Source: Fidelibacterota bacterium (lineage in GTDB: Bacteria > Fidelibacterota > Marinisomatia > SCGC-AAA003-L08 > JACNLC01). Taken from it: 64,000 nucleotides of DNA. Both the position numbers and the translations under genes were made by a program. The stretch is from positions 83,086 through 147,085 of the forward strand of contig JABHXA010000004.1 in assembly GCA_018657495.1 (NCBI GenBank), written 5' to 3'. Of the stretch, positions 9,062-64,000 are shown piece after piece. Under the pieces are notes generated by a model. That model had not been told where the DNA came from. It made no database searches and saw only the letters and a list, made by a program, of their open reading frames with translations. The number at the start of each line of letters is the position of its first letter. Position 1 is the first letter of the stretch.

Positions 9062-9136
9062 ATGTCTGCTAAGAGATATTTTCTATTATTTGCTGTATGC
9101 GCTAGTTTATCCATATTTAACACCGCCTATTCTCAA
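9062..9136 (+). other. Signal peptide of the giant protein
   Basis: MSAKRYFLLFAVCASLSIFNTAYSQ has a basic n-region, a hydrophobic core and an AYS-Q cleavage-like site. Confidence 0.7.
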
Positions 9137-41346: not shown

Positions 41347-41348
41347 TA

Positions 41349-44331: not shown

Positions 44332-44443
44332 TCTAACCTAAGACGTTGGAAACACCTGAATAAGTTCACTAAATTAACATGCTGTATCTGTTTCATTTTT
44401 TATTGTTAAAAGTACGATTATAATTAAACCAACTAATTCAAGA

Positions 44444-45163: not shown

Positions 45164-45174
45164 GTGAGGATTTC

Positions 45175-46002: not shown

Positions 46003-46012
46003 CCCACAAAAT

Positions 46013-48829
46013 ATGACTAAAACTCTAAAAATCCTCTGCTTGGTTTTTGCAGGGGTTTTAATGATTAATACAGGATGCGACTCAAAACCTGTTAACATAG
46101 ACCTTGGTGATAATGGATACAAACTTGATTCATTCTATACCAATTCCAATTTTTCCAGATCAATACAAGATGGTTCTGGAATAGGCCATAGTTCACGCCT
46201 TTATCTAGGTAAACTTGATTCTGTTAGAAGTAGCTATGCACTCTTAAAACTCAATAAGGATGTTCTGGAGAATCATTCAGATATCTGCTCACTTCCTTCT
46301 GACAGCGTCATCTACAAAGAATCCTTCATTAGGTTGAATTCTGTAATACGTTTGACCACCCAGGGCGAAATTTCGGAATCTGATTCAGCTTATCAAGACA
46401 ACCATTTCGATTTTCATGAAGAGTTTCAATCGTTTCAAGCTTTTTGGATAAATTTTGATAATACAGATTTTTCCTGGAATGAGTTTTCCACTTTCAGCTT
46501 AAACGACTCCATAATTACTGAAATTGGAGAACTGTCAAATATCCAATCTTACAATAGCAATATTTCTGAGTTGGTAGTTACGGTTAAAAACTTTATTTTA
46601 GATATTCATCTGATTCCAACACTAGGTGGCAATAATAATTACCTATCAGATTTATGTGATGCGTCCTCAAGTGATAGTTATGGAATTTTATTACGTTACA
46701 ATAACCCAGATGAATATATTGAATTGTATTCAACAGATTATTCTATTTTATCGGGACAGCCGTATTTTGATGCCATGTATGAAAAATATACCGATGTTTT
46801 TCTAAATGAAAATAAATATGAAATATCCAGCGTAACTCCAATTGCTTTCGATTTAAATGGTATATTATCGGACCTCGAGTCAGCCAGCGCTGGATGGGGT
46901 ACTGTAATTGCCATGAATTTTGATCTAGACTCACCTCCATCAGGCACTATTAATCCACAGATTGGCATGATTGACAGTACCTTTGAACTCATGTCATTTG
47001 AGATCGACTTAATCGACCATGAAACTGATTCTTCCGGTTTAGTTGATATCTATCTTTCTGATATAATTTTAGCAAATATGGATATAGACCCCAGTAATGA
47101 TAATTACTCAGAAAATGATACTTTGGGAACGGAGAATAATTTTCTCCCTGACGATGGAGAATTATATTTTGATTGTGGGCTGGATGGTTTATGTGATGAA
47201 GATGAACCGGGATATTTCCCAGAGGGTACTGAAAATAATGAGTTATGGGATGATGGAGAATTCTTTAGTGATACCGGCATCGATAGTCTGTTTAATATAG
47301 ATGAGCCCAATTATGATGCAATTACAAATCCTGATCCAAATAGCGATGACTATAATATTGATCCGACAGAAGATAATTGGTTAGATTGTGGTTTTGATAA
47401 TATTTGCCCTGAAGATGCCAATTATATTGAATCCGATGAAGGTGAAAATAATGGTGAATGGGATTTTGGAGAGACTGGCGAAGAAGGGAATGGTCAATTT
47501 GAAAACGGTGAATTATATTGGGATTATGGCCTGGATGGGATTCACGACGTCAATGAACCCGGCTATGATGCTATTCTAAATCCCGATCCAAATAATGATA
47601 ATTGGGATGAAAACACCCAAACCGGAACAGAAGGCAATAACATATTTGACTGGACCGATGTAAATGATGATGACAGGATGGATGATGATGATGTATTTGA
47701 AGTTTTTATGGATGCTGGTCTTGATACACTCTGGAGTTTGAATGAGGATGGATTTAATCCTCTCGGAACAGAAGGTAATGGTTTATACAATTTTGGTGAG
47801 GGTTTCGAGGACTGCGGAATTGATATGGTGTGTGATGAACCTGACGATATTGATGATTACATACCTGATCCATCTGAAGATAATTATGATGTGGAAAATA
47901 ATCCTGATGGAACAGAAATAAACGGAGTTCTTGACTGGCAAGATTCAAATGACAATGGATTATGGGATATGAATGAAGGTGAAGAATGGTTTGACTGGGG
48001 TGTGGATCAAGTTCAAAATGAGTTAGAACCATATTATGGGGGGCGAAGAATAAACTTGCCATCAGCAATAAATTTTGTGGAATGGGATTTTGTCGATAAT
48101 CCCACGATAACATTTGACATGCCGACCTATAATCAGGATCAAGGGGAAGAAGCCGTAATTTGGATCTCATCAATCGAACCTGACGGTACACCGGAAAAAT
48201 ACATTGTCACCTTATCAGTGAATACATCAATTGCCTTACACGGATTTCAACTAAAGCTGAATCATATCCCATTTAGCTTCACTGAATCTCAGTTGACAGA
48301 ATTTCATACCGGTCTAAGATATATTGAAGGCGATAAACTTATCGAAGATGTATCATTGTATCAGCAACACGAGATTGATGAAGACAGCTTAATAAATACA
48401 CTTCAAATAAAATATGGCGATAATCTAAAAGCATATTTGGATTTTACTGAATTAATAGATTTCCAAATCGAACATCAGGATGCTATAATTTCAAAATCAC
48501 TTCTGACGCTTTATATCGATTCTTCAAGGACAGATATAGATGGCACTATATTCCTCAATGTTAATAGGATGACTGATCCACTGGAGCTGCCTGTTGATTC
48601 TCTAATGACAAATGAGATGAATAGCATAGTAGTGTCAGAAATAAATGATGGTATTATTCAAATCGATATCAAACCCTTTATTCAGGATATTGCTTTTGGG
48701 GAATATGAATTTTTTGGTCTTATTCTTGAAGCATCTAGCTTAGGCAATAATTTTTCAATACTTACAATAAATAATGATATGAGTCCAGATACACTGAAAC
48801 CCCAAATAGAAATTTTGTTCTCAGAATGA
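46013..48829 (+). CDS. Large lipoprotein with a central acidic repeat region (possibly DUF4270-related)
   Basis: The lipobox is LMINTGC. The central ~320 aa (nt 47078-48045) holds about seven [FWM]D.G.D...(E/D)P.Y(D/F)-type acidic repeats. Confidence 0.5.
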   Translation: MTKTLKILCLVFAGVLMINTGCDSKPVNIDLGDNGYKLDSFYTNSNFSRSIQDGSGIGHSSRLYLGKLDSVRSSYALLKLNKDVLENHSDICSLPSDSVIYKESFIRLNSVIRLTTQGEISESDSAYQDNHFDFHEEFQSFQAFWINFDNTDFSWNEFSTFSLNDSIITEIGELSNIQSYNSNISELVVTVKNFILDIHLIPTLGGNNNYLSDLCDASSSDSYGILLRYNNPDEYIELYSTDYSILSGQPYFDAMYEKYTDVFLNENKYEISSVTPIAFDLNGILSDLESASAGWGTVIAMNFDLDSPPSGTINPQIGMIDSTFELMSFEIDLIDHETDSSGLVDIYLSDIILANMDIDPSNDNYSENDTLGTENNFLPDDGELYFDCGLDGLCDEDEPGYFPEGTENNELWDDGEFFSDTGIDSLFNIDEPNYDAITNPDPNSDDYNIDPTEDNWLDCGFDNICPEDANYIESDEGENNGEWDFGETGEEGNGQFENGELYWDYGLDGIHDVNEPGYDAILNPDPNNDNWDENTQTGTEGNNIFDWTDVNDDDRMDDDDVFEVFMDAGLDTLWSLNEDGFNPLGTEGNGLYNFGEGFEDCGIDMVCDEPDDIDDYIPDPSEDNYDVENNPDGTEINGVLDWQDSNDNGLWDMNEGEEWFDWGVDQVQNELEPYYGGRRINLPSAINFVEWDFVDNPTITFDMPTYNQDQGEEAVIWISSIEPDGTPEKYIVTLSVNTSIALHGFQLKLNHIPFSFTESQLTEFHTGLRYIEGDKLIEDVSLYQQHEIDEDSLINTLQIKYGDNLKAYLDFTELIDFQIEHQDAIISKSLLTLYIDSSRTDIDGTIFLNVNRMTDPLELPVDSLMTNEMNSIVVSEINDGIIQIDIKPFIQDIAFGEYEFFGLILEASSLGNNFSILTINNDMSPDTLKPQIEILFSE

Positions 48830-50049
48830 AGTACATTTTAATTATTCTTCTAACCTGTTTTGCCTGGTCACAAACAAGCACATCATCTTTACTGGGTCTT
48901 GGCGAAAACATACAGTATTATGATCCATCCACTGTTGGAGCAGGAGGAAATACGTTATTTTCCTCCCATTCAGATGAATTCACATCTTCATCTCCAACAA
49001 CATTATGGAAAACAAATACTACACGATTGAGCATATCCACATCATTTAACAGGAATAGGACGGATGGAGGCGGGCGTCAGGAATCACAGCTGATAAATCA
49101 GATTTCATTTACCTTCCCCATTAAACCTATGAGCGCCATTTCATTTGGTCTTCGACCTCACACTCGTTCAGCATTTCAAATTCGTACCAATTACGATGAA
49201 GCCGAGCATGTCCAATTTGATGAAAATGTATTTGCCCCGGCATTTTATTATCACAGCAGTGGCGGAATCAGCAGATATTTTATATCGTATTCTAAGAAGA
49301 TTAATGATACCTACTCACTAGGAATCACATGGAATAATGAATTTGGTAATCTGTTTTTGACAGATTCAGTCCTTACTTATAAAGTAACTACCAATTCGGA
49401 ATCTGGGGCAACAGTTTATAGTTTATCTGATATTTCAATAAACAATCTTACTCAAAATTTTAATGGCAGCAGTATCTATTTTGAAGGTAGGTACACTCAA
49501 AACAAAAATCATATGGTCCTTGGTATTGAATTAGAAAATTCATTGACTATCAAATCAAAAAATTACAACCCGATTACCGGTAGTGAATCCACAACAGCAG
49601 AAACAATCAAAATGGAATTTACCGGGTTCAAAGGGGGATATGAGTATAAACATAACGAGACTATCAGCGGAATTGTTGAAGTTAATTATTACAAACCGCT
49701 CAAGACTGCAAATCCAATATTTGGCTTGAATAATATAAGTCAGTTAGGATTGCATACAGGTATTATAAAAAGAGTTAAAAATTCCAAATTAGGTCGATGG
49801 GACTTTTTAAATATTTCCACGGGATTATATTCGTATCAACATAAAACTTCAAATGGAAATTATAGTGATACAGGGATCAGCTTTGGATTGGGAATGGAAT
49901 ATTTCAATAAAAGAAATATGATTGATCTTGTTATTACTGCTGGAAAGCGTACGAGTCCATTTGATGAATTGACAAATGAAGAATATATAAACCTGATGGT
50001 AGGTATAACTACAGGGGAAACATGGTTTATAAAAAGGAGAAAAAAATAA
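48826..50049 (+). CDS. Hypothetical exported protein, possible outer-membrane beta-barrel
   Basis: The signal peptide is MKYILIILLTCFAWSQ. The sequence is Ser/Thr/Asn/Gly/Tyr-rich with alternating patterns. The start overlaps the upstream stop (ATGA). It has no terminal Phe. Confidence 0.35.
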   Translation: MKYILIILLTCFAWSQTSTSSLLGLGENIQYYDPSTVGAGGNTLFSSHSDEFTSSSPTTLWKTNTTRLSISTSFNRNRTDGGGRQESQLINQISFTFPIKPMSAISFGLRPHTRSAFQIRTNYDEAEHVQFDENVFAPAFYYHSSGGISRYFISYSKKINDTYSLGITWNNEFGNLFLTDSVLTYKVTTNSESGATVYSLSDISINNLTQNFNGSSIYFEGRYTQNKNHMVLGIELENSLTIKSKNYNPITGSESTTAETIKMEFTGFKGGYEYKHNETISGIVEVNYYKPLKTANPIFGLNNISQLGLHTGIIKRVKNSKLGRWDFLNISTGLYSYQHKTSNGNYSDTGISFGLGMEYFNKRNMIDLVITAGKRTSPFDELTNEEYINLMVGITTGETWFIKRRKK

Positions 50050-50053
50050 TCAT

Positions 50054-51307
50054 ATGAAAAAGCAATTTATATTATATGCGATAATTTTATTATTAATTGG
50101 AGTTGGATGTGTACCTCCTGAAACTACAGTTGAAGATGAAGATACTGGAATGACGGCTATTGAACGCAACAAAGAATGTGATTTGTATTTAAGTTTTGCT
50201 CATACAAATTATCAAAATAGAGATTATCGGAGTGCTATAAGAAATTTTTCAAATATTATCGATTTAGGTTGTGCAAAAAGAAATAGCCTGGAAATATTTC
50301 CGTGGATGACCAGATCTTATATCGAACTATCAAAAGATGAGAAAGAACCCAAATTAGCAACCGTATTGATGGATAGTTCGTATTGGTCCATTCGACAGGG
50401 TCTAAAATATTCTCCAGATGAAATGAGCATGCTGGAATTAGCCGCCTGGATAGCAGGAGATATGGGTAAAACAGATGACCAGATATATTATATTGATAAG
50501 ATCCTTTCCATTGATCCGGAGAATACTTCGATTCTTTGGAAAATCTTTGATATTTATTCTGAGCAGGATAATTGTACTGAAATGTTAAATATTTTAAACA
50601 TATTGTTAAATATAGATTCTGAAGATAAAAAAGCCCTCGGTGAATTACGCAATGTTTATGAATGCCTTGGCATGGATCCCATTGAGATTGACAAAGAAAG
50701 ATGCGAAAATGATCCGTCAAATGTACCGCTATGTTTTTCGTATGCCAAAGCATTACAGCAACGTAGTGATTATGACGAGTTATTGTATGTTTTACCAAGA
50801 TTACTGTCCCATGACCCATCCAATAAAGATATAATTCAAATGCTTGCAGAAACTTATAATCAATTGGATAAATCCGCTGATGCCCTAAAGGCTTATGAAA
50901 AATTATTTAACATCACAAGAGATTATAAAATTGCTCTGATAATATCCGAATTACATTTGGATGATGAGGACTTCAAAAATGCTCTGAAATGGGCCGAAAC
51001 AGCGATATCTGTCAGTAATGGAAAAGGTGAAGCCTACTATGGAAGAGGGGAAGTTTATCGTGAAGGTATAAGCGCCTGCAGTGGTGAGGGATTAACATTC
51101 TCTGATAAACTTGGCTATGAAATGGCCTTTGAAGATTATTCAACTGCCTTAGATAAAAAGTATTTCTCTGCAAGAGCAAGAAAAGAATCATTGAGCGAGT
51201 TTATTACAACTTCATCTGATTGGTTCATGCGTCCGGATGGTGAACGTGAGGCAAAACCGGAGGGAGCATGTGTCAATTGGATAACAAGGACAATTAAAAG
51301 AAAATAA
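50054..51307 (+). CDS. TPR-repeat lipoprotein
   Basis: The lipobox is LLIGVGC. Multiple TPR-like helical pairs are present (DYRSAIRNFSNII, ADALKAYEKLFNI, FKNALKWAETAI). Confidence 0.5.
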   Translation: MKKQFILYAIILLLIGVGCVPPETTVEDEDTGMTAIERNKECDLYLSFAHTNYQNRDYRSAIRNFSNIIDLGCAKRNSLEIFPWMTRSYIELSKDEKEPKLATVLMDSSYWSIRQGLKYSPDEMSMLELAAWIAGDMGKTDDQIYYIDKILSIDPENTSILWKIFDIYSEQDNCTEMLNILNILLNIDSEDKKALGELRNVYECLGMDPIEIDKERCENDPSNVPLCFSYAKALQQRSDYDELLYVLPRLLSHDPSNKDIIQMLAETYNQLDKSADALKAYEKLFNITRDYKIALIISELHLDDEDFKNALKWAETAISVSNGKGEAYYGRGEVYREGISACSGEGLTFSDKLGYEMAFEDYSTALDKKYFSARARKESLSEFITTSSDWFMRPDGEREAKPEGACVNWITRTIKRK

Positions 51308-51744
51308 TGGAAATAGCCATCGGAGCCGATCATGCCGGTTTCAAAGCGAAAATATTTCTTATTGCACATTTAGAAAGTAAGGGATATGGAATTCACGATG
51401 TCGGTACTGATTCTGTAAAATCTGTAGACTACCCACATTTCGCCCATGCCGTTGGAAAAATGGTTATTGACGGGCATGCCGATAAAGGAATTGTAATTTG
51501 CGGTACGGGTATAGGGGTATCCATATCTGCAAATAAAATCCCCGGTGTTAGAGCTGCCCTCTGTAGTACAAATGAAGATGCAGAGATGAGTCGAAAACAT
51601 AATAATTCAAATGTCCTGGCATTGGGGGCAAGATCATGCGGACCTCCCGATCTTGTTGCAATTACAGATACATGGCTGAATACAGCTTTTGAAGGGGGCA
51701 GACATGAGCGAAGAGTTAACCAAATAGAAAATATAAATATATAA
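51307..51744 (+). CDS. rpiB: Ribose-5-phosphate isomerase B
   Basis: [13 protein letters not shown] and [14 protein letters not shown] are present. The ATG overlaps the previous TAA by 1 nt. Confidence 0.9.
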
Positions 51745-51746
51745 TT

Positions 51747-53048
51747 ATGATTGACAAATTAAAAATATCCGATCCTCAAGTATATGCATCAATCCAGGGA
51801 GAATTGAAAAGACAGCAGTTTACTTTGGAAATGATAGCATCTGAAAATTTTACCAGTCCTCAGGTGATGGAAGCTGTTGGATCTATTATGACCAACAAAT
51901 ATGCTGAAGGATATCCTGGGAAAAGATATTATGGTGGTTGTGAACAAGTAGATATTGCTGAGGATCTGGCTCGGGATAGAGCAAAGAAATTATTCAATTG
52001 TGAATATGCAAATGTTCAGCCTCATTCAGGATCACAGGCAAATATGGGTGTTTACATGGCTATTTTAAAACCCGGTGATACAGTGCTTGGATTAAATTTA
52101 TCCCATGGTGGTCACCTTACCCATGGTAGTCATGTGAGTTTCTCAGGCAAACTCTATAATTTTGTATCTTATGGAGTTGATGCCCAAAGCGGTCGAGTTG
52201 ATTTCAACCAAGTGGCTAAACTCGCCAGGGAGCATAAACCAAAGATGATTATCTGTGGTGGCAGTGCATATCCTCGATTTATAGAGTTTGAACAATTTAG
52301 GGAAGTTGCCGATTCTGTCGATGCTTTACTAATGGCCGATATTGCCCATCCATCTGGTCTTGTTGCAGCAGGAATTCATCCTTCACCATGGCCACATTGC
52401 CATGTTGTTACCAGCACAACTCATAAAACCCTTCGTGGCCCCAGGGGAGGGATAATCCTTGTCGGCAAAGATTTTGAAAACTCGTGGGGTATGGTAGCAC
52501 CCAAATCAGGTCGTATAAAAATGTTTTCAGAACTTCTTGACAGTTCTGTAATGCCTGGAATTCAAGGTGGACCGCTGATGCATGTGATTGCGGGAAAAGC
52601 TGTGGCATTTGCTGAAGCACTAAAACCGGATTTCACCACCTATGCCAGGCAGATTACCTCAAATGCAAAAGTGCTGGCTGAAAAATTACTTTCGTTAGAT
52701 TATCAATTAGTCTCTGGTGGAACAGATACTCATCTGGTCTTAATCGACTTGTCAAAAGAAGGAATATCTGGTAAAAAGGCTGAAAGAAGACTTGAGGAGG
52801 CAGGGATTACTACAAATAAAAATATGGTACCATTTGATCAAAGAAGTCCTATGGTAACCAGTGGTATCCGAATAGGAACTCCTGCATTGACTTCCCGGGG
52901 TATGGGTATTGATGCAATGAAATTGATCGCTGGATTGATTGACAGCGTAATCAAAAATATTGATGACGATAGCGTAATAAAAAAGGTAAATGAAAAAGTC
53001 ATTGAGCTTTGTGATGGGTTCCCGCTATACCCTGAATTCAACGATTAA
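51747..53048 (+). CDS. glyA: Serine hydroxymethyltransferase
   Basis: [24 protein letters not shown] and [14 protein letters not shown] are present. Confidence 0.95.
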
Positions 53049-53200
53049 TTTGATTTAGTAATCGTCCTTTTTAGGCAAAATATTATTCATATTTGACTCA
53101 AGTATTTTAACGACTTTGGGTGTCTGAGATCAGCTAATTGTTCTCACTTATCTGAAATCCAATTCTTGCACTAAAACATATAAATGTAATATTATCGCAC

Positions 53201-53971
53201 ATGTTGAGAGTTATTTTATATCCTTTTACTTTGGCAATACGAATATTTGAGGATATCGGGCGCTACGTCCTGCTTCTCCTGAATATTTTTAGATCCATTC
53301 GAAATTGGCATCAGTATTTTGGGGTTACCATTGATCAGATGATTTTTATTGGTGCAAAATCAATTCCCATCGTGATTTTGACATCATTATTTTCAGGCAT
53401 GGTCACCTCTGTTCAATCAGCATATCAGTTCAGTAGTTGGGTTCCTTCCTGGTATGTTGGAAGTGTAGTTGGAGAATCCGTTTTACTGGAACTGGCCCCG
53501 ATGATTACCGGCCTCGTGTTAACCGGCAGAGTAGGGGCAACAATAGCAGCAGAATTAGGCACGATGCGAGTTACTGAGCAAATCGATGCTCTTGAATCCC
53601 TTTCTTTTGATCCCGTTTCCTATCTCATTTTACCCAGAGTCGTTGCTGGAACCGTAATGTTCCCTTTTTTAATTATCATCGCCGATATTTTTGGAGTTAC
53701 TGGCGGTTGGTTAGCAGCTTCCGTTTCTATGGATGTATCATCCTATGAGTTTATCAAGGGGTTTCGAACCTGGTTCCATCCGTTTGATGCATGGTTTGGA
53801 CTAATTAAAGCGACAGCATTTGGTTTTTCAATTACATCTATTGCCTGCTATCAGGGTTTTTATACCAAGGGCGGTGCAATGGGTGTAGGTAAGGCAACTA
53901 CCGTAACTGTAGTTGTATCCTGCGTGACTATAGTATTTCTAGACTATGTCTTGGCGACTTTAATGTTATGA
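53201..53971 (+). CDS. mlaE: MlaE-family ABC transporter permease
   Basis: The signature GRVGATIAAELGTMRVTEQIDALESL is present, the protein is polytopic, and an MlaF-like ATPase follows. Confidence 0.85.
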   Translation: MLRVILYPFTLAIRIFEDIGRYVLLLLNIFRSIRNWHQYFGVTIDQMIFIGAKSIPIVILTSLFSGMVTSVQSAYQFSSWVPSWYVGSVVGESVLLELAPMITGLVLTGRVGATIAAELGTMRVTEQIDALESLSFDPVSYLILPRVVAGTVMFPFLIIIADIFGVTGGWLAASVSMDVSSYEFIKGFRTWFHPFDAWFGLIKATAFGFSITSIACYQGFYTKGGAMGVGKATTVTVVVSCVTIVFLDYVLATLML

Positions 53972-54717
53972 TTCAAGTAAAAGATCTTCATAAAACCTTC
54001 GAAGGTAAACATGTTTTACGCGGTGTAGAATTCGATGTAAAAACGGGTGAGGCAATCGCCATTATCGGCATAAGCGGATCCGGAAAAAGTGTAATCCTAA
54101 AACATTTAATCGGATTACTTAAACCGGATAGAGGCGAGGTCTGGATGGATAATAATCTTGTAAGTGCAATGTCATTCAGAAAACTCCAGACTGTTAGAGA
54201 AAAAATTGGCATGGTATTCCAGTCAGGTGCTCTCTTTGACTCTATGAATGTTAAAGATAATATATCGCTGGCATTAAAAAAATTAACCAAGCTAAAGGGT
54301 AAATCACTTGAAGACAGGGTGAAGGAAAGTCTTGAAAGTGTGAATATGTCAGGGACCCAGGATTTGATGCCCTCAGAACTATCAGGTGGAATGAAAAAAA
54401 GAGTGGGGATTGCCAGGGCTATAGCAATAAAACCTGAATATCTTTTTTATGATGAGCCTACTACCGGGTTAGACCCTATAATGACAGATGTCATCAATAG
54501 ATTAATTATAAAATTCCAAAAAAGCGGTAATATCACCACCGTGATTGTAACACATGAAATGTCAACAGTTTATGATGTTGTTGATAGGGTGATTCTGCTT
54601 CATGATGGAAAGATCAGGTTTAGTGGTACTCCGGATGAAATCAAAGAATCAGAAGATGTGGTAGTAAAACAATTTATAAATGGTGACAGCACATTAATCG
54701 AACAGGAGATTGCATGA
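53968..54717 (+). CDS. mlaF: MlaF-type ABC transporter ATP-binding protein
   Basis: It has Walker A GISGSGKS, signature LSGGMKKRVGIARA and Walker B LFYDEPTTGLD. Confidence 0.85.
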   Translation: MIQVKDLHKTFEGKHVLRGVEFDVKTGEAIAIIGISGSGKSVILKHLIGLLKPDRGEVWMDNNLVSAMSFRKLQTVREKIGMVFQSGALFDSMNVKDNISLALKKLTKLKGKSLEDRVKESLESVNMSGTQDLMPSELSGGMKKRVGIARAIAIKPEYLFYDEPTTGLDPIMTDVINRLIIKFQKSGNITTVIVTHEMSTVYDVVDRVILLHDGKIRFSGTPDEIKESEDVVVKQFINGDSTLIEQEIA

Positions 54718-55721
54718 AGCTTTCAAGAGTATTTTGGGTGGGTTTTATCATCACTATTACATCAGTGGCATTCATTGGCGGCATGTTGTATCTTCAGGAA
54801 ATATCCTTTTCAAAATCAAATTTTACATTTACAATTATACTGGATAGCGTCCAGGGGCTGAATGAGGGTGACAATGTAAGTATGCTTGGTAAAAGAATTG
54901 GAAAAGTTACAAAAACAAAAATTATCGGACAGAAAATTGCCGTGGAATTATCAATAGATAACTCTTTTGCCTTTAGGATCCCTGTAGATTCAATAATTGA
55001 GGTAAAAAGTGAGGGATTGCTTGGTGAGAAATATGTTTCTATTTCCCCAGGGGTTGATACCAAACACTATCTATTAGAAGGGGAAACCGTTCAGGGTACA
55101 AGAGAGAAGGACCTATCTGAGATTACTCCTGGAATAATACCAATAACAAAGGATTTAGGTGCAATTGCCAGACGCTTACGCGCTACGCTTGGTGAAGATG
55201 AGAAAACACGGATTCAATCCACTATTAAAAATATCGAAAGTCTAACCGCCGAACTCAATCTATTGACTACAGAATTCAGAGGCACTATCAGTGAAGAAGA
55301 TAAAGAATATATACACGCATTTACTCTAAATATGAAATTACTATCAGATAGCCTGCGCACAGAATTTGATAATAGTTTTAAATCAGTTGATGCCATACTC
55401 TCAGATGTGAATGATATCACCTCAAGTGTAAAAAGTAAAACAGATACATTTAATGAATCTATCGACAAATTAAATCAAAGTGCTGAAATCCTTTTGAGTA
55501 CGGCCGAAACTTTTAATTCAATAACAAATGAATTAAAAACATCTATTGATAAGCTAAACGGGATGGAAGGGACCCTGCCAAGATTGTTAAATGATGACAA
55601 AGTCTACAATAATGTCGATAGCTTAATATTTGATATTCGATATATTGTCGACGATTTCAAGGAAAATCCCGGTAGATATCTTAAAGCATATATGAAAGCG
55701 AAAAAGACTGATGACGATTAA
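54714..55721 (+). CDS. mlaD: MlaD-like MCE-domain protein
   Basis: It has an N-terminal TM helix, an MCE beta-barrel segment (GLNEGDNVSMLGKRIGKVTK...EVKSEGLLGEKYVSISPG) and a long helical C-terminus. Confidence 0.8.
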   Translation: MKLSRVFWVGFIITITSVAFIGGMLYLQEISFSKSNFTFTIILDSVQGLNEGDNVSMLGKRIGKVTKTKIIGQKIAVELSIDNSFAFRIPVDSIIEVKSEGLLGEKYVSISPGVDTKHYLLEGETVQGTREKDLSEITPGIIPITKDLGAIARRLRATLGEDEKTRIQSTIKNIESLTAELNLLTTEFRGTISEEDKEYIHAFTLNMKLLSDSLRTEFDNSFKSVDAILSDVNDITSSVKSKTDTFNESIDKLNQSAEILLSTAETFNSITNELKTSIDKLNGMEGTLPRLLNDDKVYNNVDSLIFDIRYIVDDFKENPGRYLKAYMKAKKTDDD

Positions 55722-56081: not shown

Positions 56082-56116
56082 ACCGAGTAACCGATAGGAT
56101 GTACTCGGTTTTTTTT
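56082..56116 (+). terminator. Rho-independent terminator-like hairpin 195 nt after the last upstream gene
   Basis: A perfect 8-bp stem, ACCGAGTA (56082-56089) / TACTCGGT (56102-56109), is followed by T7 (56110-56116). Confidence 0.65.
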
Positions 56117-56141
56117 ATAGAAAATAGGAGTAATTATAAAA

Positions 56142-57518
56142 ATGAAGTGGTTGGTGAAAATAACAGCAATTTCAATGTTAATCACAAGCGCCTGGGCAGT
56201 TGGTGAAGCCGGTGCAATATTTCTGATGATCGCCCCCGGGGCAGGACCTGCAGCCACCGGTGAGGCTCAGGTAGCGAAGGTGGGAGATGCATATGCGTCA
56301 TATTATAATCCTGCCGGTTTGGGTTTCCTAAGCGGAAGGGAAGCAGCCCTTATGCATGTCAATTGGTTACCCAATTTGGCGGATGATTTGTTTTATGAAT
56401 TCATGGCTTACAGGCACGAAGTTCCAGGTTTGGGTACATTTGGTGGACATATAATATTTTTAAATCTTGGCAAGCAAATTCAAACAGATGAAAATGGAAA
56501 TCAAATTGGAGTTTTTCGCAGTAATATGTGGGCTATTACCGGAAGTTTTGGAACCATGTTGAACGCACGTTCATCTATTGGTGTGAGCGCTAAAATATTT
56601 CATCAAAAATTATTTGATAAGGGTGTAAGCGGAGAGGCCGGGAAAGGAATCTCAACAGATTTCGCCTTTGACCTTGGTTACCTGTGGAAAAGCGATAGAA
56701 TAAATTTTGGTATAAGCATCGCTAATATTGGGCCAAGCATCGCTTTTATCGATGAGAACCAGGCTGATCCTGCTCCAACAAATATGAGGATGGGAGTTAA
56801 ATTTGACGTTTTTAAAAATGAATTCAACCGTCTTGAATTGTTTTTTGACATGAATAAAATGCTGGTGGCATCCTATTCTGAAATGGATTGGGATGATAAT
56901 GGAGTTATTGGTGGTTATACCGATAATGGAAATGAATCATGGGGTGGCGATTACAATTCAGACGGTCAACAGGAAACTGCTTATAAAGACAAATGGTATA
57001 AAGCGCTTTTCACATCATGGTTAGATGATTGGTACCTTGGAGGAGACCTCAATCTGGGCGGTTGGACAACACAACAGGAAGCGGATAATGTCATTGGTGG
57101 TTATACATGGATAGATAATCCTTTAAATACAGATGATATCGGTGAAATTTATGGCAAAGGAGATTCACAGGTATCTAATTATGTATCTAGACCTGAATGC
57201 CCACAATGTGAAATTGTTGCTGAAGAAAATGGTAAATTAAATGAATGGGGTGTCAAAGAGATTGGCACAGGTGATGACAGAAAATTCTCCGCCGAATTTA
57301 AAGAAATGGTCTATAATTTTGGTGCAGAATATTGGTACACAGATAACTTTGTTCTAAGGGGTGGATTTATATATGATGAGGTAGGTAAAATAAAAGTTCC
57401 TACATTTGGTGCCGGTATTCATCTGGGCCAGTATGGATTCGATTTTGGCTACACCGCCGGCAAGAGTGGTCATCCCAGAGCAAACACGATGTATTTTTCT
57501 TTAAATATTGAAATCTAA
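56142..57518 (+). CDS. porV: T9SS outer-membrane shuttle protein PorV (LptO) family
   Basis: It has a signal peptide. GAIFLMIAPGAGPAATGEAQVAKVGDAYASYYNPAGLGFL is followed by MHVNWLPNLADDLFYEFMAYR. The C-terminus is ...NTMYFSLNIEI*. Confidence 0.7.
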   Translation: MKWLVKITAISMLITSAWAVGEAGAIFLMIAPGAGPAATGEAQVAKVGDAYASYYNPAGLGFLSGREAALMHVNWLPNLADDLFYEFMAYRHEVPGLGTFGGHIIFLNLGKQIQTDENGNQIGVFRSNMWAITGSFGTMLNARSSIGVSAKIFHQKLFDKGVSGEAGKGISTDFAFDLGYLWKSDRINFGISIANIGPSIAFIDENQADPAPTNMRMGVKFDVFKNEFNRLELFFDMNKMLVASYSEMDWDDNGVIGGYTDNGNESWGGDYNSDGQQETAYKDKWYKALFTSWLDDWYLGGDLNLGGWTTQQEADNVIGGYTWIDNPLNTDDIGEIYGKGDSQVSNYVSRPECPQCEIVAEENGKLNEWGVKEIGTGDDRKFSAEFKEMVYNFGAEYWYTDNFVLRGGFIYDEVGKIKVPTFGAGIHLGQYGFDFGYTAGKSGHPRANTMYFSLNIEI

Positions 57519-57530
57519 CCAAAATATCCG

Positions 57531-60176
57531 TTGAAAATATCTCCTATAATTATAAGTATTTCCCTTTGTCTTGCTGGGAATACGCCGGATTTTATCCTAC
57601 CATCAAGTACAGTAAATAATATTGCAAGTTATTCCACAGTGACATCAATAATTGGAGTCATGGTAGATTTTCAAATTGAAACTGAAGATTCACCGGATTT
57701 ACTTACAAGTGGCAACGGTGCTTTTCTACAAAGTTCAGAAGATGTGTTTGATGAACGATGCATTGATTTCCATGCCGATCCACCGCCTCATAATCATGCC
57801 TATTTTACATCACAGATAAAAGCCCTAAATAATTACTATAAAAATGTGTCGCAGGGAAGTATTGATTTATCTTACCATGTCATTGATTCAGTTTACCATC
57901 TTCCAAATATTATGAGACATTATGCCACTGAAGATACATCCCTTGGATTATTGTTTAATGATGCAGTTAATTTGGCTCAAGACTCTCTCGCTTATTATTA
58001 TGATGATAATACCATTGTTGTAATATTTCATGCCGGCATTGGGCAAGATTTTGCCATCCCGTTTCTTGATCCAACACCCTATGATTTAAAAAGTGCTTTT
58101 GTGGATGATGAGATAATGGCAGAGACTCCTTGGCCACAGATAAATGGACAAACACTATCCCGCGGAATTATTTTGCCTGAAACCCAAAATCATCTCTATT
58201 ATGATGTAATAGAAGAGATATTCTTTGGTGAAACCGATTATTGCGATTACCAGGTTGGCATGACCGGTACTTTTGCTTTTCTAATGGGTTATGCATTTGG
58301 ATTACCTCCGTTATTTAATACTGAAACAGGAGAATCCGGTATTGGTGTATTTGGATTAATGGATCAGGGGTCAAATAATGGACGCGGGGTTATACCAGCC
58401 CCACCAACTGCGTGGACAAGAATATTAAAAGACTGGGATCAATATGATGACATTAATCAGCAGGGATCACAGCAAATTTCAATTAATTATGACAGCGGAC
58501 AATTTCACGATATACATAAGATCAAAATTTCAGAGAGTGAATACTATTTATTAGAAAACCGTACAAACCGGGTAAATCGATTCGTAGACAAGAGCATAGA
58601 TGATATCCGCTATGACAATCGCGATTCTGATAATCGTAGAGCGCATTGGTTTGATACCGTTGAGGAAGAATTTACTCAAGCACAAATAGAAATCGATAGT
58701 GAAACTGGAGTAATCACCTGGTTTGACCATTATGATTATGGATTACCAGGATCAGGATTACTGATCTGGCACATAAATGAACCGGAAATTGACCATCTTA
58801 TGGATGGAATCAATAATGATCGCCAAAACAGATCAGTTCACCTTGAAGAGGCAGATGGATCTGTAGACATAGGTTTTGAAAGTTATGCCGTCTTTCAATC
58901 CGATGACCCCACAAATGGCCGTATTTGGGATATGTGGTACAGGGGGAATGGTGGATTTTTCTTCGCAAATGATACATTGCAAATACCACCAGGTGATGAG
59001 CCCTTTGGACCAAATCCATGGTTTAATGATTCTTCTTATCCAAATACAGAGTCCCAATCAGGTGGTAAAACTTATATATCAATAGATTCCATCAGTTATT
59101 CTGGTACAGCCATGAGCTATGTCTATGCATTAACTCCGCCATTTGAATCTCAATTTCTTTCTGATGAGGAAATATTTGTTTCAGGTGGATATATTGACGA
59201 AGAGGCCAGCGATGGCGGTTTATATTATATACTAAACGAGCAATTATTCAGAAGAAATCAGAATGAAATTGAATCGATTGCTGTTGGAAGCTGGTTGGGA
59301 TATGTCCTGACTTCTAGTGAATGCTTTCAGGACACATTTAACATTGATTTGGATCAATATACTGACCTTTATATTAATGAAGAAAGCTGCCAGGTTGAAT
59401 CATCCACAAACATTCTGCCAATGGCATATTTGAACGATGACACAATCCTTGAAGAAGTGGAAGTGGCAGATGCCCTGGGTGATATTGATATGGATGGCCT
59501 TGATGAAATAATTACCACTGAGAATGGCTCTATCTTTTCCAGAAATAGTAACAGTATAATGAATAATGGATTTCCTGTAGCAGGTAATTTTTATGGTAAT
59601 ATTCTGATTGCAAATGTTATTGGCAATGCATCTCCTGAAATCATTTGCCGTGAAAATGATAATATTGTCTTCATTAGCAACGGGGGTGAGAGGTTGTATG
59701 AAATTTCCTCATATCAACCGGAACAACCACTTATGACCATTCCTTATTGGTCAAATGACTCCATGGCGATAATCGATGGGAGAAGGATATTTTTATTTCC
59801 AAATGATTTAGATCATTCCTACTGGTTATTTCCTGGCGGAAGTCCATCAAATAATCTCGTTGTTACCGGTGCTCATCACACTTCTGCTATACCATCATTT
59901 GGATTTGATAAAAATCGGGCATACAATTACCCGAATCCAATTACAGATAATCGCACTACATTTAGATATTTTGTTGGTTCTGCCGCATCAATTGAGATAA
60001 AGATATATGATTCATCGGGGCACCTTATAAAAAATCTATACAATGATGATCTAACCCATAATGAGTATAATGAAACAGCCTGGATACCTGGAAAAATAAA
60101 TCCTGGATTATACCTGGCTGAAATAAAACCAGATGTGGGTTCTTCCAATATTATTCAAGTAGTTTATTTAAAATAA
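57531..60176 (+). CDS. CTD-bearing M6 (InhA)-like protein with the HExxH motif replaced (putative pseudo-peptidase)
   Basis: M6-like landmarks are IIGVMVDFQIE, VIFHAGIGQDF, GIILPETQ and GTFAFLMGYAFGLPPLFNTE...GVFGLMDQGS, compared with the M6 pattern G.FAHEFGHDLGLPDLYDT. An FG-GAP-like GDIDMDGLDEII is present. The CTD YNYPNPITDNRTTFRYF... spans 59922-60173. Confidence 0.55.
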   Translation: MKISPIIISISLCLAGNTPDFILPSSTVNNIASYSTVTSIIGVMVDFQIETEDSPDLLTSGNGAFLQSSEDVFDERCIDFHADPPPHNHAYFTSQIKALNNYYKNVSQGSIDLSYHVIDSVYHLPNIMRHYATEDTSLGLLFNDAVNLAQDSLAYYYDDNTIVVIFHAGIGQDFAIPFLDPTPYDLKSAFVDDEIMAETPWPQINGQTLSRGIILPETQNHLYYDVIEEIFFGETDYCDYQVGMTGTFAFLMGYAFGLPPLFNTETGESGIGVFGLMDQGSNNGRGVIPAPPTAWTRILKDWDQYDDINQQGSQQISINYDSGQFHDIHKIKISESEYYLLENRTNRVNRFVDKSIDDIRYDNRDSDNRRAHWFDTVEEEFTQAQIEIDSETGVITWFDHYDYGLPGSGLLIWHINEPEIDHLMDGINNDRQNRSVHLEEADGSVDIGFESYAVFQSDDPTNGRIWDMWYRGNGGFFFANDTLQIPPGDEPFGPNPWFNDSSYPNTESQSGGKTYISIDSISYSGTAMSYVYALTPPFESQFLSDEEIFVSGGYIDEEASDGGLYYILNEQLFRRNQNEIESIAVGSWLGYVLTSSECFQDTFNIDLDQYTDLYINEESCQVESSTNILPMAYLNDDTILEEVEVADALGDIDMDGLDEIITTENGSIFSRNSNSIMNNGFPVAGNFYGNILIANVIGNASPEIICRENDNIVFISNGGERLYEISSYQPEQPLMTIPYWSNDSMAIIDGRRIFLFPNDLDHSYWLFPGGSPSNNLVVTGAHHTSAIPSFGFDKNRAYNYPNPITDNRTTFRYFVGSAASIEIKIYDSSGHLIKNLYNDDLTHNEYNETAWIPGKINPGLYLAEIKPDVGSSNIIQVVYLK

Positions 60177-60205
60177 TTTTATTCATAATACAGTATATTA
60201 ATTAA

Positions 60206-63205
60206 TTGAGTATGACTTCTACAAGGAACCCACTTATTTCTATATTTAATTACATTTCTGACAATTTAAAATCTCATTCGCGATTTATAGTATATGTTAG
60301 TTTTCTGCTCACAACATTTATATATCCTCAAAGTTGGTATAACCATGTTGAATTGGATTGGCATACCATTGAAACAGATCATTTTTTCGTTCATTATCAT
60401 GATGAAACAGAAAGAAGCGCTAGAGAAGCGGCAGTCGTGGCCGAATTTATTTACGGACCTATCACCGGCATTTATAATTTTGAACCGAGTTCAAAAACTC
60501 ATTTGATTATAAAGGACGTTGATGATTATTCAAATGGTGCAGCATATTACTACGACAATAAAATTGAGATATGGGCTCGTCCTCTAGAATTTGATTTAAG
60601 AGGTGCGCATCGTTGGATGCAGGACGTAATCACCCACGAATTCACTCATATTGTTCAAATCCAGGCATCAATGAAATATCCGCGAAAAGTCCCTGGATTT
60701 TATTTCCAATCCCTCATGTACGAAGATGAAAAAAGAGACGACGTATTATATGGATATCCCAATGTAATCATATCTTACCCAATTCCCGGCACTGCTGTAC
60801 CGCCATGGTTTGCCGAAGGGACTGCACAGGTAATGTATAAAGATGCTAATTTTGATTTCTGGGATTCTCACCGGGATATGATTCTTAGGGACCGCACCCT
60901 AAACAATAATCTGCTTTCGTTTGATGCAATGAATACTTTTGGTAAAAAGGGCATTGGTAATGAATCCATATATAATCAGGGTTTTTCGTTTGTAAACTAT
61001 CTCGCCAATCGATTTGGTATGGATGTGCTCCATGATATCTCAAAGGCCTTGAGAAATCGCCTCAATTATTCGATTCGCAAAGCAATGAAGGATGCAACTG
61101 GCATCGATGGAGAGAATCTTTATAATGAATGGGTGAAAGATTTAAATACTAAATATGTTGCTAAAACAATACATCTCAATGGAAATATTCAATCAGGGGA
61201 TGTTATAATTAGGGGGGGTACAACAAATATCCATCCTGTATGGTCACCTAACGGAAATCGATTCCTGTATTTATCCAATGTTGAAAATGATTATTTTAGC
61301 CAGACAGATTTATTTTTATATGACTTCAGCGACTCCACGTCAAAAAAGATTTTTTCACGTATAGAAACTGCACCATGCTGGGTAAATGATTCCACTATCA
61401 TTTATACACGAAAGGATAAACCAAATAAAAATGGTTCCAGGTTATATGATCTCTTTCAATATGATCTGGTAGAGGAAGAAGAAACAAAACTTACACATGA
61501 CCAAAGATTGATTTCACCTGTTATCAATAGACAACTGAATATGATTGCAGCTATTACTACCTATGACGGGACATCCAATATATTGATAAGTGAATTAGAT
61601 AGTATTGATTTTAAACCTCTGACAAATGAAAAAAACGGTCTGCAAATGTTTTCTCTTGATTGGTCGGGAGAATCATTATTAGTAGATGCAACAGAACATC
61701 ATGGCCGGCAGGTATATGAAGTGCTTCCGGATGGTCAACTAAATATTAAATCAGCGATAGGATTTGATACCAGGGATCCGGAAAACTCTGAAAACTTAAT
61801 TATAACTTCAAATGATAAATCCGGGATTTTTAATCTTGAAATTCATGGTGATAATCAATCAGGCTACATTACCAATGTAACCGGTGGGGCATTTATGCCT
61901 GATATTTCGAATGATGGTAGAATTCTGTACAGTCTCTATCAAAACGGAAGTTACAATATCGCCTTAATAAATGATTATGATGTAATTGATTCAGAAATAA
62001 TAGGGTACGCTGACAATTATTTTGAGACATACCCAGAGTCAGATTTGATAGATTATGGAATTCGGGCAGAATCAAAATCATATGAGGATACATTCCCAAA
62101 TCCATTTATCCTGCCAAGATTGATGATGGATTATAAGACTTTAAAACCAGGGTTTTATCTGTTTAGCAGTGACATTCTAAATCGTCTGTTTCTTTTTGGT
62201 GGTGCTTCGCTAAATCGATTGGGTGATAAAGATATATTCCTTATCATTGAGTATGGAAAATGGAAACCAACATTTTACACAAATCTGTTTTGGATTTCAC
62301 GAAATACTGTTCAGAACACAACTTATAATGAAATCTATCCAACTAAAAGTGATCTTACAATTCAGTTCTTTTCAACAGATATAGGATTGAGATTTCCCTT
62401 TATGAACAATAAAATCTGGCTATACTATACCTATACAAAATATCGACAAGTAATTAATCAAGTTATTAATAATGATGATGGACATGTCGAGTCCTTTGGT
62501 GGTATTGCATTTGATTATTTTAGGACTCATATATTATCGTTGAAAGGCGAGTATTCAACGAGAAAACCAGAATATGCCGGTAACATGCTGCCTTCCAACG
62601 GATACGAAATTGAATTCTTACTTTCCCGGGAAAACAATAAGTTTATGGATGGTTTTGGGTTTAATGAAGAGTATAGCACCTTTGAAACATTTTTTAAAGA
62701 TCACTTCACCGAAAGACTTACAATCACTGGAAAAAAACATTTTACATTAAATCAAGAGAAAAAATTCGTCGCATCTCTTGAAACGCAGATTGGTTATTTA
62801 TCAAATAAACATGTTGATGATTTCTTTTATTTTTTTGCCGGTGGTTTACCAGGATTAAAGGGATATACATTTTATAATGAAGATTTGCACGGGCCGTATT
62901 TATGGGTGAATACCGGTACAGTCAGACTTCCATTATTTATGGAAAAAAGTTATTCCTTTGCACATATGAATTTTCAGAATATGTCAGTTGGCATGATCAT
63001 GCAAATGGGAGGTGGATTTGAAAGTAATCTATCAGGTTTTTTAAAGAATAAAGAATACAAAGTTTCTGGGGGTGTAGAATTCAGGCTAAGTGGATATTCA
63101 TTTTTTGGATATCCAACTGCAATAGCTTACGAATATCACAAGCCCATTGCAGATTCGGAAGAGTCTAAAGGTAAACAGTATTTAACAATACTTTTTGATT
63201 TTTAA
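60206..63205 (+). CDS. Fusion protein: HExxH metallopeptidase-like domain + PD40/TolB-like beta-propeller + Omp85-type barrel
   Basis: VITHEFTHIVQ lies at 60635-60649. PD40-like blades are PVWSPNGNRFLYLSN and FMPDISNDGRILYSL. The C-terminal FFAGGLPGLKGYTFY...VRLPL matches the Omp85 motif, and the terminal residues are ...ILFDF*. Confidence 0.6.
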   Translation: MSMTSTRNPLISIFNYISDNLKSHSRFIVYVSFLLTTFIYPQSWYNHVELDWHTIETDHFFVHYHDETERSAREAAVVAEFIYGPITGIYNFEPSSKTHLIIKDVDDYSNGAAYYYDNKIEIWARPLEFDLRGAHRWMQDVITHEFTHIVQIQASMKYPRKVPGFYFQSLMYEDEKRDDVLYGYPNVIISYPIPGTAVPPWFAEGTAQVMYKDANFDFWDSHRDMILRDRTLNNNLLSFDAMNTFGKKGIGNESIYNQGFSFVNYLANRFGMDVLHDISKALRNRLNYSIRKAMKDATGIDGENLYNEWVKDLNTKYVAKTIHLNGNIQSGDVIIRGGTTNIHPVWSPNGNRFLYLSNVENDYFSQTDLFLYDFSDSTSKKIFSRIETAPCWVNDSTIIYTRKDKPNKNGSRLYDLFQYDLVEEEETKLTHDQRLISPVINRQLNMIAAITTYDGTSNILISELDSIDFKPLTNEKNGLQMFSLDWSGESLLVDATEHHGRQVYEVLPDGQLNIKSAIGFDTRDPENSENLIITSNDKSGIFNLEIHGDNQSGYITNVTGGAFMPDISNDGRILYSLYQNGSYNIALINDYDVIDSEIIGYADNYFETYPESDLIDYGIRAESKSYEDTFPNPFILPRLMMDYKTLKPGFYLFSSDILNRLFLFGGASLNRLGDKDIFLIIEYGKWKPTFYTNLFWISRNTVQNTTYNEIYPTKSDLTIQFFSTDIGLRFPFMNNKIWLYYTYTKYRQVINQVINNDDGHVESFGGIAFDYFRTHILSLKGEYSTRKPEYAGNMLPSNGYEIEFLLSRENNKFMDGFGFNEEYSTFETFFKDHFTERLTITGKKHFTLNQEKKFVASLETQIGYLSNKHVDDFFYFFAGGLPGLKGYTFYNEDLHGPYLWVNTGTVRLPLFMEKSYSFAHMNFQNMSVGMIMQMGGGFESNLSGFLKNKEYKVSGGVEFRLSGYSFFGYPTAIAYEYHKPIADSEESKGKQYLTILFDF

Positions 63206-63231
63206 TTTTTGATATAAATAAAAGGCTAAAT

Positions 63232-64000
63232 ATGAAAAAATATCTGACAATATTATATATCACCATTAGTGTTATTGCTTCAATGAATTTTACATTCGGG
63301 GGTGAATTGGGTTTTAGTTATGATAAGATGCTTTTGATCAATAGCACATTAGATTCAACAATTACAAGCGATGAAAATCTAAGTCAAAATATTATAACAA
63401 ATAAAAAATATACCGGCCGGGCAATGTTGTATTCGGGTTTGTTGCCGGGGTTAGGTGAGTACTATACAGGTGCATGGAAGCGAGGACTTGTTTTTGCTGG
63501 AATAGAGATAGCTGCCTGGATGAGCTGGTCAAAATTTGAGAAAAAAGGAGATGATGCATCCGATGATTACGAATTATATGCAGATGATCATTGGGAATTC
63601 TCCAGATGGGTTGCAAATCATGACAATTGGGAAGGGGATACTTTATTCCAATCCATGTTCTCAAAAAATATAGCAGATGAAGGCGATGAACCTCTTTATT
63701 TGTATGAAGATATATGGGAAGGCAGCCACTCAATCGAAATTGCCTATACAGTTTATGAAGACGGTATTGAAAAAATAAAACTGCTTGATACCAATTCTAA
63801 AAGTGGAACAGGAAGTAGTGATAGTTACCTTTTTGAAGAATTATTTTATGACGGCTTTTTATTTGAACAGAATGGTATTCAATATAATTTTGTAAATATG
63901 TCTGATGAACAAATTGCTTGTTATATCGGGGAATATGAATGCGATCCATCTTTTGTAACAGATCCAAATTTTCAAGTAATTAAAGACAATACTTATTATG
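63232..64000 (+). CDS. Hypothetical membrane-anchored protein, 3'-truncated by the window edge (not in the ORF track)
   Basis: My own translation from the ATG at 63232 is open to the window end: MKKYLTILYITISVIASMNF...YSGLLPGLGEYYTGAWKRGLVFAGIEIAAWMSW... It starts 26 nt after the upstream stop. Confidence 0.5.
   Translation, partial: MKKYLTILYITISVIASMNFTFGGELGFSYDKMLLINSTLDSTITSDENLSQNIITNKKYTGRAMLYSGLLPGLGEYYTGAWKRGLVFAGIEIAAWMSWSKFEKKGDDASDDYELYADDHWEFSRWVANHDNWEGDTLFQSMFSKNIADEGDEPLYLYEDIWEGSHSIEIAYTVYEDGIEKIKLLDTNSKSGTGSSDSYLFEELFYDGFLFEQNGIQYNFVNMSDEQIACYIGEYECDPSFVTDPNFQVIKDNTYY

Follow-up and report, generated by a model that had tools for sequence, protein, structure and literature searches.

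Four consecutive plus-strand genes at the end of a 64,000-nt stretch of DNA from a Fidelibacterota bacterium (contig JABHXA010000004.1, positions 83,086 to 147,085; hereafter 'the window') probably represent the Marinimicrobia copy of an ancient gene module of the Fibrobacterota-Chlorobiota-Bacteroidota (FCB) group, working alongside PorU, a type IX secretion system (T9SS) sortase, and not replacing it, an interpretation that we hold with moderate confidence. The row comprises porV, a gene for a putative M6-like pseudo-peptidase carrying a T9SS type-A C-terminal domain (CTD), a gene for a 'WD40-like' Omp85 zinc peptidase (hereafter Omp85-peptidase) and a gene for a DUF5683-like membrane protein. 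The source names carried by close homologues put the organism among the Marinimicrobia (SAR406, Fidelibacterota). Open reading frames (ORFs) of the window were listed and translated, and public gene calls on the same contig (ENA HAWL17 scaffold_21; GCA_018674335.1) were used for comparison. The listing confirmed four genes on one strand with intergenic gaps of 12, 29 and 26 nt, as given in the preliminary description of this DNA, whose gene identities (PorV-family protein, M6-like protein with CTD, HExxH/PD40/Omp85 protein and membrane protein) were likewise correct, including the Omp85 call that Pfam alone misses.

The strongest evidence for a module comes from the conservation of gene order across phyla. 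In a scan of one genome per species, relatives of the M6-like protein turned up in 225 species; the best 80 loci, all from Marinimicrobia, were examined. Across approximately 75 Marinimicrobia species loci the order PorV, M6-like, Omp85-peptidase, DUF5683-like was unbroken wherever contigs were long enough and went on through bamD and nadD as far as ftsX, even where the M6-like proteins were as little as 32% identical. Between porV and ftsX, gaps were tight or overlapping (medians of −4 to 33 nt), with a median of −1 nt between the M6-like and Omp85-peptidase genes. Tight spacing was nevertheless dropped as evidence, since the tight Marinimicrobia run extends through bamD, nadD and ftsEX, and order within Marinimicrobia was considered weak proof of joint function because the entire neighbourhood is syntenic in this streamlined phylum.

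Outside Marinimicrobia, the order in Calditrichota was PorU (NF033707, 696 bits), PorV, M6-like, Omp85-peptidase and DUF5683-like; Rhodothermales had PorU, PorV, M6-like, Omp85-peptidase, a thioredoxin-like gene and DUF5683, and Fibrobacterota a propeller-PorV fusion, M6-like and Omp85-peptidase. Three further lineages displayed the same order, with a C25 gene adjacent or two genes off, and in several phyla the M6-like and Omp85-peptidase genes overlapped by 1–4 nt. A set of 80 metagenome loci (GC content 27–63%) was then recruited solely via the M6-like protein, and their neighbours were scored with profiles built from the earlier loci. PorV was located directly upstream of the M6-like gene in 68 of 69 evaluable loci, the Omp85-peptidase directly downstream of it in 46 of 50, and the DUF5683-like gene next after the Omp85-peptidase in 44 of 45. 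Of 49 evaluable loci, 29 had a canonical C25 PorU directly upstream of PorV, and in the remaining 20 it was absent within 10 kb on either side. Only Marinimicrobia-like loci (5 of about 45) had an adjacent bamD. Because the metagenome neighbour counts are near-complete and bamD is lineage-restricted, the universal core consists of exactly these four genes, and their conservation across phyla is far beyond chance. The four-gene order of the preliminary description is therefore conserved in related lineages, in the Marinimicrobia loci as well as in Calditrichota, Rhodothermales, Fibrobacterota and others.

Since the same genes are found directly behind canonical porU (29/49 metagenome loci, Calditrichota, Rhodothermales and the two loci L093 and L094), the module is not an alternative to PorU in general. 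This changes two earlier proposals. The M6-like protein had been placed in the slot of PorU next to porV; porU, however, lies upstream of porV and the M6-like gene downstream, and both are present in 29 of the 49 loci. The idea of an alternative T9SS machine survives insofar as the row appears to be a T9SS-linked unit whose order recurs across FCB phyla, but not as a substitute for PorU.

A narrower version, in which the module replaces PorU in Marinimicrobia, with the barrel-anchored HExxH peptidase cutting CTDs and the pseudo-peptidase on PorV presenting cargo, seems to us decidedly unlikely. A C25/PorU domain was detected neither in the window nor, for 77 Marinimicrobia loci, at a distance of up to 10 kb from porV, but non-adjacency of porU does not equal its absence from the genome. 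The HExxH site of the Omp85-peptidase is invariant, as replacement would have it, yet the peptidase is expected on the periplasmic side by Omp85 topology, whereas PorU cuts CTDs on the cell surface. The lack of an adjacent porU in 20 of 49 metagenome clusters as well, together with the fact that the sole marine stand-alone PorU found (L095, described below) is not assignable to Marinimicrobia, counts for replacement; the canonical porU directly preceding the same genes in 29 of the 49 loci, in Calditrichota, in Rhodothermales and in L093 and L094 counts against it.

Searches for PorU itself were conducted at several levels. A five-sequence PorU profile gave no C25 match, CTD aside, in the window or in the 80 Marinimicrobia loci, and a PorU search of the protein database produced 55 matches, none of them named Marinimicrobia. 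The possibility that porU is hidden upstream of porV in other Marinimicrobia clades was rejected, as the 3–4 kb there encode TRAP or Mla transporters. Also rejected as a degenerate PorU was the 938-aa ORF upstream in the window, which matched neither any family nor the PorU profile. A metagenome scan for the context of PorU2 (Pedobacter) gave no loci.

A stand-alone C25/PorU homologue of 1251 aa, with no porV nearby, was observed on a TARA scaffold with 33% GC (L095, 10001–13756), directly upstream of maf, mraZ, rsmH, ftsL, ftsI, murE, murF and mraY (the dcw cluster). With a cluster of 50 members it is common in marine assemblies, and it might represent the PorU of Marinimicrobia; the scaffold had no orthologues in common with the other loci examined, and tetranucleotide correlation failed to discriminate in controls.

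The first gene of the row (56142–57518, plus strand) encodes a 458-aa PorV-family outer-membrane barrel, recognised by hidden Markov models (HMMs) and by alignment to a solved PorV. The protein passed the NCBIfam PorV/PorQ family model NF033709 (228 bits, cutoff 90) and Pfam PorV PF19572 (80.6 bits, cutoff 27) but missed the PorV equivalog NF033710 (165 bits, cutoff 250), so that the initial porV call stands for the family and falls short of the equivalog. The NF033710 score was far above those for PorQ (63.5) and PorV2 (32.8), and the positional orthologue in Rhodothermales passed the same equivalog model (287 against 250). Full-length alignment to Flavobacterium johnsoniae PorV 6h3i_F (residues 28–393 of 402, E = 1.7e-23) revealed an insertion of approximately 85 aa in the window protein, which is 41% identical to the Calditrichota PorV adjoining PorU. 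Judging from these comparisons, the gene product is probably a PorV orthologue with a lineage-specific insertion.

The unit can be taken to start at porV, since porV in Marinimicrobia loci is invariably preceded by a gap of 146 nt or more, the genes upstream differ by clade (Mla genes in the window, a TRAP transporter in other Marinimicrobia clades), and in the window a hairpin with a T-run precedes porV. This hairpin, ACCGAGTA...TACTCGGT with eight consecutive T after it (56086–56124, plus strand), was recognised by reading the sequence and also appears in the centroid fold; it resembles a terminator and probably marks the upstream boundary of the unit. A consensus terminator scan did not report it, and Rfam and promoter/terminator scans of the region returned nothing useful. 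On the public contig, the fourth gene of the row is followed by bamD, nadD, a Na/Ca exchanger gene, ftsE, ftsX, grpE and dnaJ.

Other arrangements of PorV-family genes were also seen. A second PorV/PorQ-family gene in the window (22225–23178, 317 aa) scored 77.6 bits with NF033709, below the cutoff, and 52 bits with the PorQ model. Its neighbours encode a 4373-aa tandem-95-repeat protein (9062–22183) and a 1049-aa protein (23220–26369) with a strong type-A CTD (TIGR04183, 50 bits), and the latter may form a dedicated barrel-cargo pair with it. In a Fibrobacterota locus, PorV is fused to an N-terminal extension with a faint Reg_prop match (L087, 3045–5225, 726 aa), and in another locus a PorV ORF of about 860 aa carries an N-terminal extension and the Omp85-peptidase is missing (L147, 6486–9074).

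The second gene (57531–60176, plus strand, TTG start) encodes the 881-aa M6-like protein, in which we distinguish a signal peptide, an inactivated M6-like domain (residues ~38–500, nt 57642–59030), an FG-GAP-type β-propeller (residues ~510–790, nt 59058–59900) and a seven-strand CTD (residues 792–881, nt 59904–60173). It aligned to NF052323, 'T9SS-dependent M6-like inactivated metalloprotease', over model positions 38–634 plus the CTD (E = 4e-109) with 366 bits, below the cutoff of 600, and on this comparison is a homologue of that family without equivalog status. Its orthologues scored 573 bits in Calditrichota and 692 bits in Rhodothermales, the latter passing the cutoff. NF052323 was built alongside NF052324 (PorU2) and NF052325 (PorV2), whereas the neighbour in the window scores as PorV (165 bits) and not as PorV2 (33 bits); the 881-aa protein also differs from the family in a shorter region between the M6-like domain and the CTD. 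The family name records T9SS dependence only, and no role. The M6 domain model TIGR03296 remained below its cutoff (60 against 110.8 bits, E = 3e-16), no match to Pfam Peptidase_M6 was found, and a PDB sequence search was empty. As for the CTD, the type-A model TIGR04183 passed (25.4 against 23), Pfam Por_Secre_tail PF18962 was below cutoff (21.6 against 27), and the motifs YNYPNP, GLY and the terminal K were conserved in the M6-like homologues.

No HExxH motif was present in the 881-aa protein or in six cross-phylum homologues (seven of seven representatives lacking it), in which the aligned site reads FLMGY, LQIGF, ASFFN and similar. In an alignment of 37 M6-like homologues, the HExxH position was F-L-x-G-Y, followed by a conserved GLPPLF, and a FHAGIGQDF motif was invariant. 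Going by these alignments, catalytic activity has been lost from the M6-like protein in each of the seven representative lineages. The loss of HExxH in every lineage checked also speaks against its earlier casting as part of an alternative CTD-processing machine. An AlphaFold2 model (mean predicted local distance difference test score, pLDDT, of 84) displayed an N-terminal α/β domain, a β-propeller, whose motif GDIDxDGxDEI is of FG-GAP type, and a C-terminal sandwich of seven strands; Foldseek searches with this model gave propeller and Ig-like folds only. Likeness of the CTD to that of PorU was considered as a sign of CTD retention and rejected as non-discriminating, the same CTD also matching PorZ and M36-cargo models.

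That the M6-like protein is ordinary T9SS cargo encoded by chance beside porV, in a row with no joint function, is most improbable. Such a reading fits the canonical type-A CTD and the NCBIfam label 'T9SS-dependent', which is also given to cargo enzymes such as the M36 family, and within Marinimicrobia, where the neighbourhood is syntenic throughout, gene order proves little. It does not sit well with adjacency to porV in 68 of 69 loci from lineages with GC contents of 27 to 63%, with a loss of catalytic residues that is ancient and shared while other motifs are still conserved, or with the translational coupling to the next gene in several phyla. The cargo alternative offered in the preliminary description is hence disfavoured: the gene is phylum-wide, adjoins porV almost without exception and is often translationally coupled to its downstream neighbour.

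That neighbour, the Omp85-peptidase gene (60206–63205, plus strand), encodes 999 aa from a TTG start, or 997 aa from the ATG at 60212 used in public gene calls. The protein is, as far as sequence and structural modelling indicate, a fusion of an MA-clan peptidase (residues ~45–325, nt 60338–61180), a TolB-like propeller (residues ~330–590, nt 61193–61975) and a true 16-strand Omp85 barrel (residues ~620–999, nt 62063–63205). The peptidase motif HEFTH occupies residues 144–148 (nt 60635–60649); H144, E145 and H148 were invariant and E204 nearly invariant among 37 homologues, the latter being a candidate third zinc ligand, and HExxH was kept in 12 of 12 homologues across phyla. Peptidase_MA_2 gave 29.6 bits (cutoff 32.4, E = 7e-7), and many homologues carry precomputed PF13485 matches. 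For the propeller, PD40 passed (33.1 against 20.9), a profile search returned sequence-level TolB matches, and Foldseek matched TolB and tricorn protease.

The AlphaFold2 model of the 999-aa protein (pLDDT 84.7, predicted template modelling score 0.82) contains a peptidase domain, a propeller and a barrel of 16 strands at residues 634–997, and Foldseek retrieved BamA barrels (e.g. 6fsu, 7nre) with a probability of 1.0 and a TM-score on the target of 0.55. Pfam PF01103 (Omp85) did not match the sequence at E of 0.1 or better; several homologues carry precomputed PF01103 matches, and the annotation pipeline PGAP calls C-terminal fragments 'BamA/TamA family outer membrane protein'. An equivalent of the loop-6 lid-lock motif (V/I)RG(F/Y) was identified as GGLPGLKGY (residues 879–887, within FFYFFAGGLPGLKGYTFY, nt 62816–62875). 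This motif did not vary among 37 homologues, and most cross-phylum orthologues have it as (R/K)G(Y/F). As in BamA, the long loop that carries it connects barrel strands 11 and 12. HMM libraries detected no POTRA domain in the protein, whose barrel is preceded instead by the peptidase and propeller. The propeller is closest to that of TolB, a periplasmic protein. With loop 6 located between strands 11 and 12 and with a propeller of TolB type, the peptidase and propeller are probably periplasmic.

Members of this family are numerous, a profile of the 999-aa protein retrieving 1156 cluster representatives at E ≤ 1e-30, with named members from Calditrichota, Rhodothermales, Fibrobacterota, Latescibacterota and others. 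A 'WD40-like' Omp85 subfamily of unknown function, with examples from Caldithrix, Rhodothermus, Chloroherpeton and Cloacimonas, was catalogued by Heinz and Lithgow in 2014, who proposed a BamA-BamB-like fusion (PMC4104836). The window protein resembles it in occurring in FCB lineages and in joining a TolB-like propeller and an aminopeptidase-like MA domain to a POTRA-less Omp85 barrel; the intact HExxH and the link to porU, porV and the M6-like gene were not reported there (PMC4104836).

On this basis, the Omp85-peptidase and the DUF5683-like protein might serve outer-membrane biogenesis or quality control, as a BamA/BamB-like fusion with a BepA-like protease, with no role in cargo attachment, and be co-transcribed with porV only because barrels, those of the T9SS included, need to be built and policed. 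We consider this rather unlikely. The true Omp85 barrel with its loop-6 motif, the TolB-like propeller, the BamA-BamB-like role proposed for the subfamily in 2014 (PMC4104836) and the existence of homologues outside T9SS contexts all agree with it. So does bamD following directly in Marinimicrobia, but this adjacency is limited to Marinimicrobia-like loci (5 of ~45), whereas the Omp85-peptidase gene has the M6-like gene and porV beside it almost universally, and the frequent overlap of 1–4 nt points to a specific partnership with the M6-like gene.

Two further systems provide a frame for the topology of the Omp85-peptidase. BepA is a periplasmic M48 zinc protease associated with the β-barrel assembly machinery (BAM), and PlpD is a type Vd protein in which an enzyme is fused to an Omp85 barrel. 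Both resemble the Omp85-peptidase in the physical tie between an Omp85 barrel at the outer membrane and an enzyme, whether a zinc peptidase or another, and they illustrate two topologies, periplasmic quality control (BepA) and surface display (PlpD; PMC11116518). They differ from it in that BepA belongs to another peptidase family and is a soluble tetratricopeptide repeat (TPR) protein in its own right, PlpD carries a patatin passenger as well as a POTRA domain, and neither is known to have a T9SS link.

Two observations touch on the wider Omp85-peptidase family. In a metagenome-assembled genome (MAG) labelled Nitrospirota (L088, 6452–14881), two tandem Omp85-peptidase paralogues are followed directly by a gene for a 453-aa FG-GAP protein, with no PorV; this arrangement recalls the M6-like protein with its FG-GAP propeller, and hints that peptidase and FG-GAP protein were paired at an earlier stage. 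An apparent fusion of the M6-like protein and the Omp85-peptidase in one stop-free frame (L063, 728–6409), in which the junction joins the CTD end straight to a signal peptide, was rejected as a probable assembly artefact (one MAG of 65, ~3× coverage).

The fourth gene (63232–64000, plus strand) leaves the window after the N-terminal 256 of 366 aa, its full length being known from the identical contig in public assemblies. The full-length copy matched DUF5683 with 31.4 bits (cutoff 26.7) and has a signal peptide, an LLPGLGEYY hydrophobic hairpin and, like outer-membrane proteins, an aromatic residue at the C-terminus. In Calditrichota, Rhodothermales and the loci L092–L094, this place in the row is likewise taken by homologues. 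DUF5683-like proteins from five lineages (including L001, 15702–16802) have the motifs YYENIGKYxQFxxGW and NDxY...NHxxSAxDA in common and finish with a strand of alternating hydrophobicity whose last residue is W or F, resembling an outer-membrane β-signal. Clusters without adjacent porU had two tandem DUF5683-like genes in 13 of 18 cases, and those with porU a single one in 17 of 21.

Comparison with the attachment complex of Porphyromonas gingivalis (PorU-PorV and PorZ-PorQ) helps to place the row. In that system PorU and PorZ keep their CTDs and dock on PorV and PorQ (PMC12365241). Here too, a PorV-family barrel is encoded beside a large CTD-bearing, putative surface protein, and sister phyla encode the PorU sortase within the module cluster. 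On the other hand, the window contains no PorU, PorZ or PorQ-type partner for the row, and the known complex has no Omp85-type or DUF5683-like subunit. Like PorZ, the M6-like protein unites a β-propeller and a type-A CTD and lacks any evident catalytic site (PMC12365241, PMC8545088), but PorZ has two Reg_prop-type propellers, as against an inactivated M6-like domain plus a single FG-GAP-type propeller in the M6-like protein; the PorZ model NF052228 matches the Calditrichota M6-like homologue in its CTD only.

By analogy with PorU and PorZ, the M6-like protein would be exported by the T9SS and retained at the surface with its CTD docked on the PorV-family barrel, where it may act as a non-catalytic binding or adaptor subunit in a PorZ-like role. 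The peptidase and propeller of the Omp85-peptidase would sit on the periplasmic face of the outer membrane, where other Omp85 proteins have POTRA domains. Substrates related to the T9SS (stalled cargo, released CTDs or pro-pieces, for instance) might be cleaved there; another possibility is that the enzyme aids the assembly of T9SS barrels or polices barrel assembly. The DUF5683-like protein would be a membrane partner.

Several points weigh against a T9SS-linked FCB module of this kind. All functional links are drawn from gene neighbourhood, and the predicted fold of the M6-like protein has no specific resemblance to PorZ or PorU beyond the propeller and CTD. Four of the 50 M6-like loci have no Omp85-peptidase, and four Omp85-peptidase homologues (L088–L091) have no PorV, PorU or M6-like gene nearby; since these sit outside a PorV context, the family is not exclusively T9SS-bound. 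Lastly, we infer the side of the peptidase from Omp85 topology, and PlpD-type Omp85 proteins export their N-terminal enzyme.

Going further, the M6-like protein, the Omp85-peptidase and the DUF5683-like protein could be unrecognised T9SS attachment or processing subunits in FCB phyla outside the model Bacteroidia, the pseudo-peptidase being PorZ-like, the Omp85-peptidase the first Omp85 protein dedicated to the T9SS, and the whole perhaps independent of a C25 sortase where the cluster lacks porU, e.g. in Marinimicrobia. We put this forward tentatively, as possible but not the likelier outcome. Full-text literature searches returned no paper joining the M6-like family, WD40-like Omp85 or DUF5683 to porU/porV, and no paper on T9SS in Marinimicrobia. 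The parts are thus already known as orphan families, and what appears new is the conserved module and its T9SS linkage.

The remainder of the window contained other features of potential relevance to the cell envelope. A Reg_prop-type propeller protein of 530 aa (28124–29716; PorZ_N_b_propeller 22.3 bits against 27, no CTD match) is followed by a GWxTD-domain protein (29643–30899; TIGR04514, 93.5 bits). The region 38812–55721, all on the plus strand, is dense in envelope-biogenesis genes (mreBCD, pbp2, rodA, ybgF/cpoB-like) and further includes a truncated 275-aa GlgA-N-like gene, then rpiB, glyA, mlaEFD and a Trm112-like gene. Within it, a trio at 46013–51307 consists of the gene for the 938-aa protein without family match, overlapping by 4 nt a BamG-like gene (48826–50049; NF053685, 73 bits, below cutoff), and then a TPR protein gene; this trio is also syntenic across Marinimicrobia. 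BamG is a FadL-like BAM subunit described in Bacteroidota (PMC12611786).

To our knowledge, what is known of type IX secretion comes almost wholly from two Bacteroidota model organisms, and SAR406 is a very abundant marine group. A module that travels with porV, and usually with porU, offers three testable candidates for missing T9SS parts outside those model organisms. It would also give a first functional context to the orphan Omp85 subfamily catalogued in 2014, and its presence in cultivable Rhodothermus and Caldithrix makes genetics and pull-downs feasible.

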